Below, piece by piece: positions 3,530 to 6,616 of a stretch of 35,862 nt of DNA (positions are counted from its first letter, which is position 1; each line of letters begins with the position of its first letter). Location of the stretch: IMG/VR virus record IMGVR_UViG_3300047496_000075, positions 1 to 35,862 of that record. One strand, 5' to 3'. A program made the translations under genes and the position numbers. The notes beneath the pieces were generated by a model. That model ran no database searches. It saw only the letters and a program-made list of their open reading frames with translations, and was not told where the DNA came from. Origin of the DNA: a virus.

Positions 3530-3642
3530 ATTTACCTTATTACATAAAAATTTGCTAGTATAATGATTCTTATTTTCAAAATTACTACATTATGAAAACA
3601 ATGTATTTACTTATTTTTATTTTTGGAGATAAGGTTAATATA

Positions 3643-3702
3643 ATCACGAATGAGGACAGAAAGATATAAGACAGTAGGGAAGAGAAGAACCTCATTCGTG
3701 AT
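3643..3702. other. Perfect 13-bp inverted repeat (ATCACGAATGAGG ... CCTCATTCGTGAT) with a 34-nt loop
   Basis: Read directly; lies in the intergenic region just downstream of terL. Confidence 0.5.
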
Positions 3703-3736
3703 CATACATAGATAACCAATGTGAGTATATAATTAA

Positions 3737-5905
3737 TTAGTAATTTGGTAAATCATTTCTAAAGAACTGTGGCATATTTTGTTCGCCATAAATAGCCTCT
3801 CTCTTCATCTTATCAAAATCATTTGATGACATAGAATCTTTTGTCTTAGGTAAAGCTATACATAAGTATCTCATTGCGTCACTATTGCTAACAATTGCGC
3901 CATTTGCTAAAGAAAAATGTCCAGATATTGGCACATTAATACACCACACTTCATGCATTCCCTCTAGTTTTTCTATTTTTTCTACCATAAGATGCTTTGC
4001 AGTTTGGGTGGCAGAACTTTTGGGAATTATTTTTTCTTTGCAAAAGCATAGCTTGCTTTCCACAGAACAAACATTCTCCAATGATTCTAATTTGTTTTTC
4101 CCAACTTTTAATTCGGATTGCATGTTCACTGTGCCATCTTCTTCCAGCTTCACTTCCATGCCATTTAATAGCGGCCTCTCTTGCCTTTTGGCTGAATCCC
4201 TTGTTATTTGGTTTAGGCATTTTTCTATGCTCTCTGGCAGGAAAGCAAACAAGGTTTGAAAGCTTGTTGTTATCTGTGTTACTATCTTTGTGATGAATGT
4301 GGCAATCTGTCGGAATATTACCATAGGCTGAACTCCAGACTTCACGGTGTAACCTTGATCCGAAAGTTCTGTTATAGTATTTTGTTCCTCGATTTTTATA
4401 TATTTTGTTATTAAATGTTTGCGTTGAAACATGTTCGACGATAGGATCTGCGATCCGGATTTCAGGTTCTCTGCAGATATCCATCCTGACTCCGTCAAGA
4501 ATAAATGATCCGGCGTACATCTCACTTTTACACCATCTACAAAAACCACCTGAACTAAGTTCGCATTCTTTCTCATGCTCTTTGAGCCTATGCACTTTTC
4601 CCATCCATTCGCAGTAAGAATCTCTTCATTATCCCTAATACTTATTATAGGACGCATCCCGCTACGCGTCAATACCATTGTATCATGGGCAAAGCAAAAA
4701 TGGCTAAATTTATCGTGTAGTGGATGCGGCTTGTATATTTGTTTTTTGGAATCCCATTCTTGCCTATAGTTTTCAAGAGCCTTGATTAATGGCTTGCAAT
4801 TGTTTTTGTCTATCCAGACTTTATCTAGAGTGGATCTAACAGCCTCAATTCCGTCCACTATTGAAAGATCTGGCGCTATTGTGAAGTCTATGCCTAACTG
4901 CCTAGCTTTCTCAATCCTGGTCAGTCCTGATCCCCATTCTTGAACCTTTACGTCATGTGGTGCTATGAATTTACCATAAAGGTAAGGTTTATTGCGAATT
5001 ACTTGTACATAGTGCTCAAGTCCAACTTTAGAATTCTCATATGTATCAATTATTCTTATTGTTTGACCTATATTCTGAAAGAATATAAGACATGTCGAAT
5101 CTCTCACACCGATATCTATAGCCACATGAACTTTAAACGCTGACTCCCAGTTAACATCTCCAATTTGATTTTTAACTCGCATTTTATCGATATATTTAGC
5201 ATAATATGCACCTTCAACACCCATATCAAAACTGGTATAAAACTCCTGCATAGCAAAGTCTTCAGATATTAGACCCTCAGATATCTCTTTTTGTATTTGA
5301 TGTGGTGTTATATGATCTGTGTCTAGAATTGTTAATTTAGATGCGAACCAATTCTCTGGATTATTAATTGCTATTTGATAGAGCTCCCATAAATGATTCT
5401 TGCCACGAGGCGTTGAAATAAACAATGACCAACCATCATTGCCAAGTAGAATAGGGCGTAGGAATTTATATGCTTGTGGATCTTGTAAGGCATACTCAGA
5501 GAATATAATCCCAATTGGATTAGAACCCATAAGTGAATCTATGTTATCACTCCCGACCAATTGGATTAAAGATCCATTGGTTAATGTGATTTTCATTTGT
5601 TGACTATTAGATGATTGTATTAATTCTTGTGGAATGTAATCAAGAAATCTCACACCTTCAGTTGTAATGGAATCCCATATTACTTTGCGAGCTTGAGAAT
5701 ATTCTGGGAAGACATAATAATATACACCTATCTTGCGTAGAGCTTGCCTTAATAATAGATTAAAAGCACAAACGTCTTTGCCTGCTCTGCGGGGCCAAAT
5801 ACACAGTAGGCGCTTATATTTACCAGATTCTAATGCATGACAAAGTGGGAGCTGGTATGGCCTTGGATGGAAGCGATTAAGATGTATTTTTGTTTCAATC
5901 TTCAT
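3737..5905 (-). CDS. terL: Terminase large subunit, intein-containing precursor (722 aa; 451 aa after splicing)
   Basis: Walker A-like PRRAGKD and Walker B-like IGIIFSEY. The nuclease-domain motif HDKFSHF|SDAMRYL is restored when aa 404-674 are removed. Confidence 0.88.
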   Translation of the reverse strand: MKIETKIHLNRFHPRPYQLPLCHALESGKYKRLLCIWPRRAGKDVCAFNLLLRQALRKIGVYYYVFPEYSQARKVIWDSITTEGVRFLDYIPQELIQSSNSQQMKITLTNGSLIQLVGSDNIDSLMGSNPIGIIFSEYALQDPQAYKFLRPILLGNDGWSLFISTPRGKNHLWELYQIAINNPENWFASKLTILDTDHITPHQIQKEISEGLISEDFAMQEFYTSFDMGVEGAYYAKYIDKMRVKNQIGDVNWESAFKVHVAIDIGVRDSTCLIFFQNIGQTIRIIDTYENSKVGLEHYVQVIRNKPYLYGKFIAPHDVKVQEWGSGLTRIEKARQLGIDFTIAPDLSIVDGIEAVRSTLDKVWIDKNNCKPLIKALENYRQEWDSKKQIYKPHPLHDKFSHFCFAHDTMVLTRSGMRPIISIRDNEEILTANGWEKCIGSKSMRKNANLVQVVFVDGVKVRCTPDHLFLTESGWISAENLKSGSQILSSNMFQRKHLITKYIKIEEQNTITELSDQGYTVKSGVQPMVIFRQIATFITKIVTQITTSFQTLFAFLPESIEKCLNQITRDSAKRQERPLLNGMEVKLEEDGTVNMQSELKVGKNKLESLENVCSVESKLCFCKEKIIPKSSATQTAKHLMVEKIEKLEGMHEVWCINVPISGHFSLANGAIVSNSDAMRYLCIALPKTKDSMSSNDFDKMKREAIYGEQNMPQFFRNDLPNY
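3884..4696 (-). mobile_element. Intein in terL (Cys404..Asn674, +1 Ser675)
   Basis: Block A CFAHDTMVLT, block B CTPDHLFLT, blocks F/G VWCINVPISGHFSLANGAIVSN|S. Codon positions were checked against the nucleotides. Confidence 0.8.
3951..4604 (-). CDS. HNH homing endonuclease, nested inside the intein but in a different frame from terL
   Basis: LHREVW..GNIPTDCHIHHKDSNTDNNKLSNLVCFPAREH forms the H-N-H core. The C-terminus has CLFCGK...FCHPNC zinc-ribbon-like Cys pairs. The frame offset from terL is 2. The true start may be internal (M29). Confidence 0.72.
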   Translation of the reverse strand: MGKVHRLKEHEKECELSSGGFCRWCKSEMYAGSFILDGVRMDICREPEIRIADPIVEHVSTQTFNNKIYKNRGTKYYNRTFGSRLHREVWSSAYGNIPTDCHIHHKDSNTDNNKLSNLVCFPAREHRKMPKPNNKGFSQKAREAAIKWHGSEAGRRWHSEHAIRIKSWEKQIRIIGECLFCGKQAMLLQRKNNSQKFCHPNCKASYGRKNRKTRGNA

Positions 5906-6153
5906 TTATCATCGCATTTATAATGATTACAAAGTTTAATCTGATAAGTTATATCCCTAATATAATCTACAAAATCCGTATATTTTACATAAAGCATTGA
6001 TTTATGACAACCAATACACATCTTACTTAATAGATATTTTATTAATTCTTCTTGAAACTCAATCTCAGTCCTAAAATAGAATTCCTCGGGAAAGGCGCAG
6101 ATATCAAATCTATCCATATCAATAACTGGATGGATCTTGGTTTCAATCTTCAT
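5902..6153 (-). CDS. Hypothetical protein (83 aa) starting MKIETKIH, the same 8 aa as TerL
   Basis: Its stop overlaps the terL ATG (ATGA). The N-terminal 8 aa match TerL despite 3 synonymous differences. Confidence 0.5.
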   Translation of the reverse strand: MKIETKIHPVIDMDRFDICAFPEEFYFRTEIEFQEELIKYLLSKMCIGCHKSMLYVKYTDFVDYIRDITYQIKLCNHYKCDDK

Positions 6154-6355
6154 GTATAGATATCCTAGAAATATATTGGCCTAAGGATTTATATAATCTT
6201 GTTAGACATGTAGTCAACTTATCATCATGATCTAGGAAATTTCTAGTGCATTTATATGAATTAAATATTTTAGCGATTCGCATAGGTCTTTTAAATTCTT
6301 CAAAATATAAAAACTCTAATTCTATTTCACACGTGCGACAAAAATTTCTTTCCAA
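6143..6355 (-). CDS. Hypothetical protein (70 aa, CxxC near N-terminus)
   Basis: ORF track; overlaps the next gene by 11 nt. Confidence 0.45.
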   Translation of the reverse strand: MERNFCRTCEIELEFLYFEEFKRPMRIAKIFNSYKCTRNFLDHDDKLTTCLTRLYKSLGQYISRISIHED

Positions 6356-6394
6356 TGCGCTTTCTTTCTTTAAGATGTATCTTTGTTTTGATCT

Positions 6395-6616
6395 TCATTC
6401 ATATCGCCTATAGCAACTATAATCAAAATCTTCTTCATATGCCCAGAGTTCAACTTCTTCAGAATCATACTCACAATTACTATCATATCTCTCAATATAG
6501 AAACATCCATGAGAATAGTATCCGTATCTATATAAATACTCATTGAATTGAATAAACATAAGCATTTTATGTTTATCTGGCTTTACTTCAGAAAGCTTGT
6601 TCCACTTCATATACAT
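6395..6616 (-). CDS. Hypothetical protein, DUF551-like N-terminus (MKWNKLSEVKPDKHK...)
   Basis: W-x-x-(L/F)-x-x-x-x-P pattern followed by a hydrophobic strand. A similar N-terminus occurs at 12570. Confidence 0.45.
   Translation of the reverse strand: MYMKWNKLSEVKPDKHKMLMFIQFNEYLYRYGYYSHGCFYIERYDSNCEYDSEEVELWAYEEDFDYSCYRRYE

Follow-up and report, generated by a model that had tools for sequence, protein, structure and literature searches.

The question raised by this locus is how one strand of phage DNA can carry, in two different frames, both an intein that has to remain open for the sake of its host gene and an HNH endonuclease. The DNA, referred to below as the window, is the whole stretch of 35,862 nucleotides (nt) of the IMG/VR virus record IMGVR_UViG_3300047496_000075; the host gene is that of the terminase large subunit (terL), and the endonuclease is encoded by an open reading frame (ORF) lying inside the terL intein. 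Based on comparison with related loci, we regard the dual coding as almost certainly real and selected, and consider it very likely that the ORF is an HNH gene with initiation of its own, nested in an intein which is functional and mobile. The terL gene, the intein and the HNH ORF, together with all their parts described below, are located on the minus strand of the window.

The HNH ORF (3951..4604) starts with ATG, encodes 217 amino acids (aa) and is placed wholly within the intein, exactly where the original prediction, made from the letters of the window alone, had put it. It begins 1301 nt into terL, hence in frame +2 (= -1) of the host gene, in agreement with the same-strand, 2-nt shift described there. 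The predicted protein matches the Pfam family HNH_3 (PF13392) with E=4e-13 and 49.2 bits at a cut-off of 24.8, and the HNH families of PHROG with the best E=6e-24. Its catalytic core RLHREVW...CHIHHKD...NN...NL.C....EH (4224..4355) is covered by the HNH_3 alignment to residues 84-127 of the ORF; residues C101, H102, H104, H105, N117, C120 and H126 do not vary among 32 sequences, the window included, and the window protein retains all 24 columns that are invariant across these 32 family members. A C-terminal Cys4 zinc-ribbon-like module, CLFC...CHPNC (3999..4073), with invariant C178, C181, C198 and C202, exhibits only weak similarity to zinc ribbons of the L24e type (E ~0.2). At the other end a CxxC motif (CRWC, 4530..4541) is written over the beta-strand codons of the intein upstream of its block B. 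In an exhaustive search of protein-cluster representatives an N-terminal extension of ~55 residues was found only in the strongest matches, and all but a few of the weaker ones (144-338 aa) start at profile positions 50-84. The AlphaFold2 model of the protein has a mean predicted local distance difference test score (pLDDT) of 80, and a profile search of PDB sequences with HNH gave nothing significant. We take HNH_3 to be the I-HmuI-like homing type, with I-HmuI itself presumably a member of this Pfam family. Four HNH relatives of ~290-300 aa (P0013, P0029, P0031 and P0034) possess two or three tandem Cys4 zinc-ribbon modules, so that the overlapped terL-frame linker should be correspondingly longer in those genomes.

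The terL precursor ORF (3737..5905), intein included, encodes 722 aa and belongs to PHROG phrog_2 (E=1.7e-27), and its N-extein has matches in 1555 phage records, many of them labelled terL. The TerL protein is at most 43% identical to those of database phages and the phage is an uncultured, podovirus-like one; a search of the phage collection for DNA nearly identical to the window gave no match. The N-extein (aa 1-403, 4697..5905), ending in ...HPLHDKFSHF, shares 92% and 88% identity with TerL of the two nearest relatives, L089 and L090, which have no intein. In the window it is followed by an insert of 271 aa (3884..4696, terL aa 404-674, CFAHDT...GAIVSN), and both relatives read SHF/ADAMRYL with exactly these 271 codons missing. 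The C-extein, SDAMRYL... with the stop codon (3737..3883), starts with the Ser+1 nucleophile beside the conserved DAxRY motif; in the intein-less alleles this first position is occupied by Ala.

Judged by its hallmarks the insert appears to be a class-1-like intein. Cys404 begins the sequence CFAHDTMVLT, with CFAHDT as block A, and the TIGR01445 intein_Nterm model aligns from intein residue 1 (24.3 bits, cut-off 24.5), while the Pfam Intein_splicing model gives E=7e-8 and 32.8 bits (cut-off 35.8). Block B, RCTPDH, contains the TxxH pattern, and C60, T61, P62, D63 and H64 are invariant in an alignment of the window with three relatives. The C-terminus, ...FSLANGAIVSN, ends with Asn271 directly before Ser+1, and FSLANGA.V.N is invariant in the same alignment. 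Three parts can be distinguished: an N-terminal splicing domain with blocks A and B (intein aa 1-90, 4427..4696), a linker which is the terL-frame read-through of the HNH gene (terL aa 494-643, 3977..4426) and a C-terminal splicing domain (IEKLEGMHEVWCINVPISGHFSLANGAIVSN, 3884..3976). An Rfam scan of the whole window revealed no family at threshold, thus a group I or group II intron around HNH is unsupported. The intein would be expected to splice in cis, TerL being essential for packaging and its frame being open in each of the 85 sequences compared below. The HNH gene had been described as covering a terL stretch without recognisable motifs, which is correct for the linker, where the terL-frame sequence is unconserved, and incorrect for the first 45-50 HNH codons, which share their DNA with the conserved N-terminal splicing domain and with its block B (RCTPDH).

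Related loci were collected by scanning IMG/VR with the HNH alignment, which yielded at least 489 stretches encoding relatives, of which 80 loci were fetched. The final set comprises 84 metagenomic or viral loci and the window (85 sequences; 73 non-redundant loci at <90% HNH identity), spans a GC content of 31-65% and an HNH identity of ~40-72%, and was assembled through HNH similarity. In a protein search three intein-containing TerL fragments matched the terL-frame sequence over its full length and 35 HNH ORFs of ~200-300 aa (most ~215-235 aa) matched the HNH frame, the 31 strongest with 37-50% identity over 82-99% of the query; in the four contigs fetched for these protein matches (GC 40-58%) the TerL plus intein frame is open and HNH is open in the -1 frame. 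Both frames are open in 85/85 sequences, with 7-37 stops in the third sense frame, and the claim of a terL frame open across HNH is confirmed in the window (no stops over 654 nt in terL and HNH frames, 29 in the third sense frame) and in all 84 related loci. On whole-gene contigs the terL ORF measures ~690-820 aa, and more where the stop-to-stop segment extends upstream. Distant HNH relatives, of 30-38% identity, were detected in the +2 frame of annotated intein-containing terL genes of four published phage genomes: Clostridium phage phiCDHM19 (L085, LK985322.1), Tetrasphaera phage TJE1 (L086, HQ225832.1), Rhodobacteraceae phage LS06-2018-MD07 (L087, OP947163.1) and Acinetobacter phage Highwayman (L088, OZ038341.1). 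The open HNH-frame segment within their terL inteins has 170-305 codons, and the records annotate only terL there. Clostridium phage phi CD119 was also matched by HNH.

From the single sequence, before any relatives are considered, the simplest reading would be an artefact, in which two compensating indels shifted an ordinary in-frame HNH domain of the intein out of frame, since there are inteins that carry HNH in frame (cited in bioRxiv 10.1101/2025.01.02.630785). Such an error would not preserve a stop-free terL frame, nor would it lead to a fixed start codon. Moreover, 84 independent loci, drawn from many samples, and four isolate genomes have the two frames open at the same -1 offset, which makes this scenario, named beforehand as one that could overturn the finding, next to inconceivable. 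The same distribution speaks against the proposal that the locus represents an intermediate state of intein evolution: kept down to ~40% HNH identity and over a GC content of 31-65%, the nested-HNH arrangement is, on the evidence of these alignments, stable and long-lived rather than fleeting.

Openness of the terL frame was evaluated by stop resampling, in which the HNH protein was fixed and its synonymous codons were redrawn from the terL codon usage of the respective locus. The resampled window contained on average 7.1 terL-frame stops, with P(0 stops)=0.003; for the 73 non-redundant loci the median was 4.7 terL-frame stops, again with P(no stops)=0.003, and the observed number was 0 in 73/73. 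By this comparison chance openness of the terL frame is excluded and stop avoidance is evidently selected. Wherever an HNH methionine codon precedes one that begins with A, a terL-frame TGA would be unavoidable, and this combination occurs in 0/185 cases, though 26% of HNH codons start with A; to judge from this, the constraint of stop avoidance is extended to the HNH protein sequence itself. The caveat raised earlier, that open plus-strand frames weaken the argument from stop depletion, loses its force: those stretches are partial, the antisense frames of the window have 7, 6 and 15 stops over the 654 nt, and an antisense frame is open across the HNH ORF in 0/73 loci.

The two frames also differ in where their protein sequences are conserved. 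In the terL frame, column identity amounts to 0.5-0.8 in two segments, aa 404-493 and aa 644-674 (0.5-0.7 in the N-terminal splicing domain, 0.44-0.8 in the C-terminal one) and falls to 0.16-0.35 over aa 494-643, the very segment over which identity in the HNH frame is 0.5-0.72. Diversity at the three codon positions follows the same division. Over the linker (HNH aa 59-212) it amounts to 0.38 at HNH position 1 (= terL position 3), 0.32 at position 2 (= terL position 1) and 0.62 at position 3 (= terL position 2), so the peak is at the HNH wobble position despite its being the second position of terL codons. Over the N-domain overlap (HNH aa 1-48) the respective values are 0.40, 0.25 and 0.29, with the peak at the terL wobble position and total diversity lower than in the linker, which fits double constraint. 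When related genomes were compared in both frames, a check suggested with the original prediction, the overlap showed purifying selection on the endonuclease frame, whereas the host frame was relaxed in its constraint at the protein level. Read in this manner, protein-level selection acts along the element first on the terL frame (splicing blocks), then on the HNH frame (linker) and then on the terL frame again, and the terL-frame linker of ~150 residues seems to be selected only to stay open. Comparison of the loci directly demonstrates that both frames are open and selected and that the selected frame switches along the element.

Traces of the second frame can be followed into the splicing domain. 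An HNH-frame CxxC upstream of a conserved EM(Y/H)AGSF segment is present in 71/73 loci, and in high-GC loci the terL-frame codons that encode it are CTT for Leu in 43/43 cases (~15% elsewhere) and AAT for Asn in 30/30 cases (40% elsewhere). Judging by this codon choice, the N-terminal CxxC is maintained by fixed synonymous positions of the terL frame.

These data bear on the possibility that the HNH gene is a decaying remnant, recently inactivated and still open by chance or inertia, which would leave the element a mini-intein with a junk linker. In favour of it, the window protein differs at aa 55-83 from the consensus of the family (QTFNNKIYK compared with QYFDGGLYR), and its lineage has no clear ribosome-binding motif. 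The window ORF is, however, intact with all 24 family-invariant residues, the 72%-identical HNH of locus L005 is intact too, and the concentration of diversity at wobble positions indicates purifying selection in the HNH frame. A broken HNH frame beside an intact terL, proposed earlier as a refuting observation, was seen in 0/84 loci, in a set whose sampling through HNH similarity is biased against broken copies. We find decay very improbable.

How the HNH protein could be produced is suggested by the sequence around its start. In the window the start ATG (4602..4604) is composed of the A of a Gly codon GGA and the TG of a Trp codon TGG in the intein sequence ..NGW... In the majority subtype of the family it is made of the last base of a variable codon x and the TG of Cys in the intein sequence ...LTxCGW; codon x encodes eight different amino acids (Ser, Pro, Leu, Gln, Ala, Val, Glu and Arg) and yet its third base is A in 50/52 loci and G in 2/52, so that ATG or GTG is preserved in 52/52. 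Seen in this light, the HNH start codon is under selection. An HNH-frame stop precedes the start by fewer than 12 codons in 47/68 scored loci and by 8 codons in the window. The majority subtype has a Shine-Dalgarno (SD)-like motif, GGRGAGG, 10 nt upstream of the start, accompanied by a skewed choice of the intein codons forming it: Glu is GAG in a ratio of 44:3 (59% elsewhere) and Gly is GGR in 33/47 (29% elsewhere). A possible secondary start, Met41 (4482..4484), with GGAG at 4490-4493 and a 5-nt spacer, was considered and rejected as the true HNH start: the corresponding codon of relatives is GTG in 49, ATG in 10, TTG in 6 and CTG in 5 cases, which points to a hydrophobic residue and not to a selected start.

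Further upstream the intein codons contain a promoter-like block. Its -35 element TTGACG (4667..4672) is formed by the terL-frame codons Leu(TTG)-Thr(ACG) and its -10 element TATAAT (4644..4649) follows after 17 nt, 39 nt before the HNH ATG. With 11/12 consensus positions at this spacing, TTGACG-17-TATAAT (4672..4644) is the best sigma-70-like match in the terL region. A match of at least 10/12 is found at the same intein codons (Leu8-Thr9; x15-Ile16-Met17) in 53/68 non-redundant loci, compared with a rate of ~5.6e-5 per position elsewhere in the same loci. Codon choice is again strongly biased: the -35 Leu is TTG in 27/35 high-GC loci (77%; 16% elsewhere) and in 27/27 low-GC loci, and the -10 Ile is ATA in 29/33 high-GC loci (88%; 10% elsewhere) and in 28/28 low-GC loci. 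Third codon positions just upstream of the block (intein codons 0-6) are unconstrained. Across loci the block is situated 33-48 nt upstream of the HNH start. In the distant element of phiCDHM19 a perfect TTGACA-17-TATAAT (12/12) and AAGGAG are present just upstream of the nested HNH. The start, the CxxC and the promoter-like hexamers are thus all held in place by synonymous choices, in an element which is itself sporadic among terL genes. Internal initiation, one of the two expression routes offered by the original prediction, gains support from the selected start codon together with the SD-like motif and the promoter-like element upstream of it.

The other route offered was programmed frameshifting, in this case by -1 within the intein N-domain, which would produce a fusion of N-extein, N-terminal intein part and HNH. 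Geometrically such a fusion is possible, HNH being exactly -1 to terL and open from within the N-terminal splicing domain. Canonical -1 slippery heptamers (X XXY YYZ) are, however, present in only 8/73 loci and absent from the window, and the consensus RNA structure of 60 sequences, covering the region that begins with the intein and extends 60 nt beyond the HNH ATG, has 0 predicted pairs. The latter result removes both a frameshift-stimulating structure and the reading of the conserved block as an RNA element. Moreover, the HNH-frame stop a few codons upstream of the selected ATG/GTG argues for initiation rather than slippage, and we attach very little weight to frameshifting.

Whether the conserved TTGAC-N17-ATAAT block is the HNH promoter is a separate matter, and we are inclined to think that it is. 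In a different reading the HNH protein would be initiated internally on the full terL mRNA and the block would be some other nucleotide element, for example a binding site of a regulator or of HNH itself; this we consider unlikely, albeit worth keeping in mind. It is favoured by the synonymous sites of the 17-nt spacer (4650-4666; CGT, xAC, GGA, ACG), conserved as strongly as the hexamers: in high-GC relatives among 60 related loci the third positions of the spacer are conserved at 0.78-0.97, which exceeds the need of a plain promoter. On the other side stand the match to the two sigma-70 hexamers, optimally spaced by 17 nt, in phages whose GC content ranges over 31-65%, their location relative to the HNH start, and the perfect promoter in the equivalent place before the unrelated nested HNH of phiCDHM19. 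The two readings are compatible and can both be true, as promoter plus operator, and the conserved spacer could be an operator or another protein-binding site. An inverted repeat in the spacer, GACGC...GCGTC, was dropped as a candidate, as it showed no consistent covariation in 68 sequences.

Several observations weigh against a nested, independently initiated gene in a functional intein and its supposed promoter. Apart from the spacer just described, the host may use a promoter type other than the sigma-70 consensus. The lineage of the window has no convincing SD sequence before ATG 4604, the nearest candidate being GAAGAG 17 nt upstream; the terL and portal genes of the window are likewise devoid of a clear SD and some of its other genes have one. 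Both intein models score marginally under their curated cut-offs, the score being lowered because of the long non-homologous linker. The penultimate residue of the intein is Ser (IVSN/S, 3884-3892) in place of the usual His; Ser is found at this position also in the inteins of L005 (the closest relative), phiCDHM19, TJE1 and LS06, and most relatives have VHN (VHN/C or VHN/S). The AlphaFold2 model of the terL-frame intein has a mean pLDDT of 46 and ~32 in the linker, which hints at an unstructured linker, a weak indication given an alignment of only 4 sequences. The best Foldseek match of the HNH model, I-HmuI (PDB 1u3e), is non-significant (E=0.29, TM-score ~0.25). Finally, comparative sequence analysis is the basis of all steps of the mechanism proposed below.

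Even so, the evidence leads us to prefer the independently initiated gene, and for its most complete form the chances seem evenly balanced: a complete autonomous endonuclease cassette, with promoter, ribosome-binding site, start codon and zinc-binding N-terminal extension, written over the intein's catalytic N-terminal splicing domain. In such a cassette the same ~200 nt would serve at once as splicing residues, as part of a second-frame protein and as signals for transcription and translation.

The distribution of the element indicates mobility. The intein-less site of L089 is of the type ...AAATTTAGCCATTTT/GCNGATGCNATG..., in place of ...SHF/intein/SDAMRYL in the window, and no HNH was found within 3 kb either side of the L089 and L090 terL genes. 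Locus L005 carries both intein and HNH, with splicing domains 78% and 81% identical and HNH 72% identical to those of the window, and its N-extein is only 55% identical. Relatives with 88-92% identical N-exteins lacking the intein, together with the element being shared by the 55% identical L005, indicate horizontal transfer, with intein and HNH moving as one unit. The HNH is distributed sporadically together with its host element, and the history of the element conflicts with that of the host gene, a picture from which cutting of intein-less terL alleles by HNH may be inferred. A co-conversion tract was looked for and rejected: the window C-extein is closer to that of the intein-less L089 (69%) than to that of the intein-bearing L005 (43%), and there is no sign of a donor-derived flank.

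Inteins of the family (loci L005-L084) occur at four adjacent points of TerL, HDW/S/SH/x/ADAxRY, that is after HDW, HDWS, HDWSSH and HDWSSHx, and at each of these points position +1 offers a Cys or Ser, either available there or substituted. This suggests that the insertion site may have slid within a few codons. The insertion motif HDWSSHxADAxRY is one which we take to belong to the nuclease domain of TerL.

The proposal that a free-standing endonuclease gene entered the intein without being fused to it is supported by two observations. Free-standing HNH relatives directly adjoin terL in Salmonella phage PhiSTP1, Pseudomonas phage PAE1 and Lactobacillus phage CL2, and no TerL-sized in-frame HNH fusion is present among the best 150 of 10,188 library matches. 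Both fit an origin from a terL-associated free-standing endonuclease gene that would have become lodged in the intein. The same neighbourhood can be read in another way, in which HNH is a packaging accessory stored inside terL, similar to the HNH proteins that assist terminase at cos sites; HNH genes beside terminase genes can indeed be packaging factors (PMC3592412; mentioned in PMC11855218). Against this, phages with 88-92% identical TerL do without the intein and without an HNH gene in the flanking 3 kb, HNH always travels with the intein, and the similarities of intein and extein are in conflict. The protein, furthermore, falls into HNH_3, in our understanding the family of I-HmuI-like homing enzymes. 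We hold a packaging role to be very improbable.

The nested, mobile gene would work in the following way, in which promoter activity, HNH translation, splicing in the presence of the linker and cleavage specificity are what we infer. Ribosomes translating terL would pass straight through the HNH gene and produce a precursor whose two splicing halves are joined by the linker of ~150 residues, for which the one requirement would be the lack of a stop codon. Protein splicing would then excise the whole intein and restore TerL at the nuclease motif SHF/SDAMRY. The HNH protein would be made separately, most likely from a short transcript started at the sigma-70-type promoter TTGACG-17-TATAAT within the intein N-domain codons, with translation beginning at ATG 4604; its first 45-50 residues, including the CxxC, would be overprinted on the beta-strand sequence of the splicing domain and the remainder would overlap the linker. 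In co-infection, HNH would cut intein-less terL alleles, and intein and HNH would be copied in together.

Two features outside the intein may be added. A 17-nt inverted repeat (3639-3655/3690-3706; 94% complementary, 34-nt loop) is located just 3' of the terL stop, and a pattern scan called no terminator at 3639-3706. A 30-nt module is present in three direct copies (5877-5906, 6125-6154 and 6370-6399; 73-90% identity), spaced by 248 and 245 nt, at starts of minus-strand genes. Each copy contains the start codon and the first 8 codons, MKI(E/K)TKIH, and they begin terL, the 83-aa ORF just upstream of it (5902..6153) and a 23-aa ORF starting at 6398. The module looks like a repeated gene-start cassette or a trace of serial duplication or insertion upstream of terL.

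Elements of this general kind have been established by three recent papers from one laboratory (bioRxiv 10.1101/2025.01.02.630785; bioRxiv 10.64898/2026.09.14.751524; PMC11855218), and inteins with out-of-frame endonucleases were first reported in preprints of 2025-26, for other nuclease families. Both intein papers call the architecture rare (bioRxiv 10.1101/2025.01.02.630785; 10.64898/2026.09.14.751524). The present locus, where the HNH ORF is situated on the same strand between splicing blocks but out of frame and the host frame is stop-free, has the +2 offset that corresponds to their 'frame 3' or '+2 ORF'. In the actinophage inteins of Gosselin et al. 2025 an endonuclease VII-like gene is located in "frame 3", and antisense LAGLIDADG and VSR-like cases were described as well (bioRxiv 10.1101/2025.01.02.630785). 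Those inteins resemble ours in being often inserted in terL, with a same-strand endonuclease in frame 3 and an open host frame; the in-frame product of their endonuclease region has no recognisable structure, and invasion of the intein by a free-standing gene was proposed as their origin (bioRxiv 10.1101/2025.01.02.630785). Promoters or start codons are unmentioned in that paper (bioRxiv 10.1101/2025.01.02.630785). They differ in the nuclease, endonuclease VII-like (IPR004211) there and HNH_3 (PF13392) with a Cys4 zinc ribbon here, and in that here the HNH ORF with its putative promoter, SD and start overlaps the N-terminal splicing domain, in a family with at least 489 IMG/VR matches.

The cyanobacterial dnaX intein with a +2-frame LAGLIDADG endonuclease, as presented in the relevant section of Phillips, DeSimone & Gogarten (bioRxiv 10.64898/2026.09.14.751524), likewise has a +2 ORF overlapping the intein frame and frame-dependent selection, and secondary invasion of a mini-intein was proposed there (bioRxiv 10.64898/2026.09.14.751524). 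It differs in having a cellular host gene and a LAGLIDADG enzyme, and that section does not describe expression signals. The ShiLan domain is a hidden out-of-frame HNH within the gene of a phage DNA methylase (Arsenault et al., Genes 2025, PMC11855218). It shares with our locus an alternative-frame HNH in an insertion that is stop-free in the host frame, and is apparently homing actively (PMC11855218); there is no intein, however, and the insert would stay in the host protein (PMC11855218), whereas here the intein would remove it. For ShiLan no ribosome-binding site was found, leaderless GTG initiation was proposed and the route of translation was left open (PMC11855218), in contrast to the conserved promoter-like element and start codon seen here.

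Inteins of the canonical kind, with HNH in frame (Dalgaard et al. 1997, cited after bioRxiv 10.1101/2025.01.02.630785), are similar in combining an intein of class-1 type with an HNH-family endonuclease between splicing blocks in phage genes. Their HNH is a domain of the intein, whereas here it is a separate polypeptide of another frame, with no in-frame version in the best 150 matches. In fractured genes, split inteins have a free-standing endonuclease gene between their halves (Dassa et al. 2009, PMC2677866). The endonuclease gene occupies the same position of the intein there and the same model of mini-intein invasion applies, but the host ORF is split and rescued by trans-splicing (PMC2677866), whereas here it is kept continuous by stop avoidance and splicing would occur in cis. 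I-HmuI, the top though non-significant structural match, is encoded in a group I intron and differs from the present protein, which has a C-terminal Cys4 ribbon and an N-terminal CxxC. The present case is set apart from the known ones by its nuclease family, HNH_3 with an added zinc ribbon, by how large and divergent the family is, by an HNH ORF that reaches into the catalytic N-domain and by identifiable promoter, SD and start signals.

Obtained results provide a large data set for the "splicing first" model of inteins, in which endonuclease genes invaded pre-existing mini-inteins. The nested-HNH state is long-lived and widespread rather than a rare intermediate, and free-standing relatives are found beside the same target gene. 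The locus is also a clean natural case of long same-strand dual coding in phages, with ~650 nt read in two frames and each constraint measurable: stop avoidance, including the forbidden Met-then-A context, the switch of the selected frame and signals placed in synonymous sites. Gene callers give either terL or HNH, not both, and such inteins could pass for mini-inteins or decaying ones. If inteins of the family splice as proposed, their essentially arbitrary and differing linkers of ~150 residues would amount to a natural tolerance experiment for protein engineers. A testable answer is offered to the question of how an out-of-frame endonuclease is expressed, which the two 2025 actinophage papers leave open or unaddressed. 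Should the autonomous cassette be true, it would answer the expression question left by the 2025-26 papers, and a triple constraint would be stable across a family of at least 489 IMG/VR matches with a GC content of 31-65%. Production of the endonuclease would be uncoupled from the (late) expression of terL, and the conserved spacer could be an operator that times or autoregulates the nuclease.

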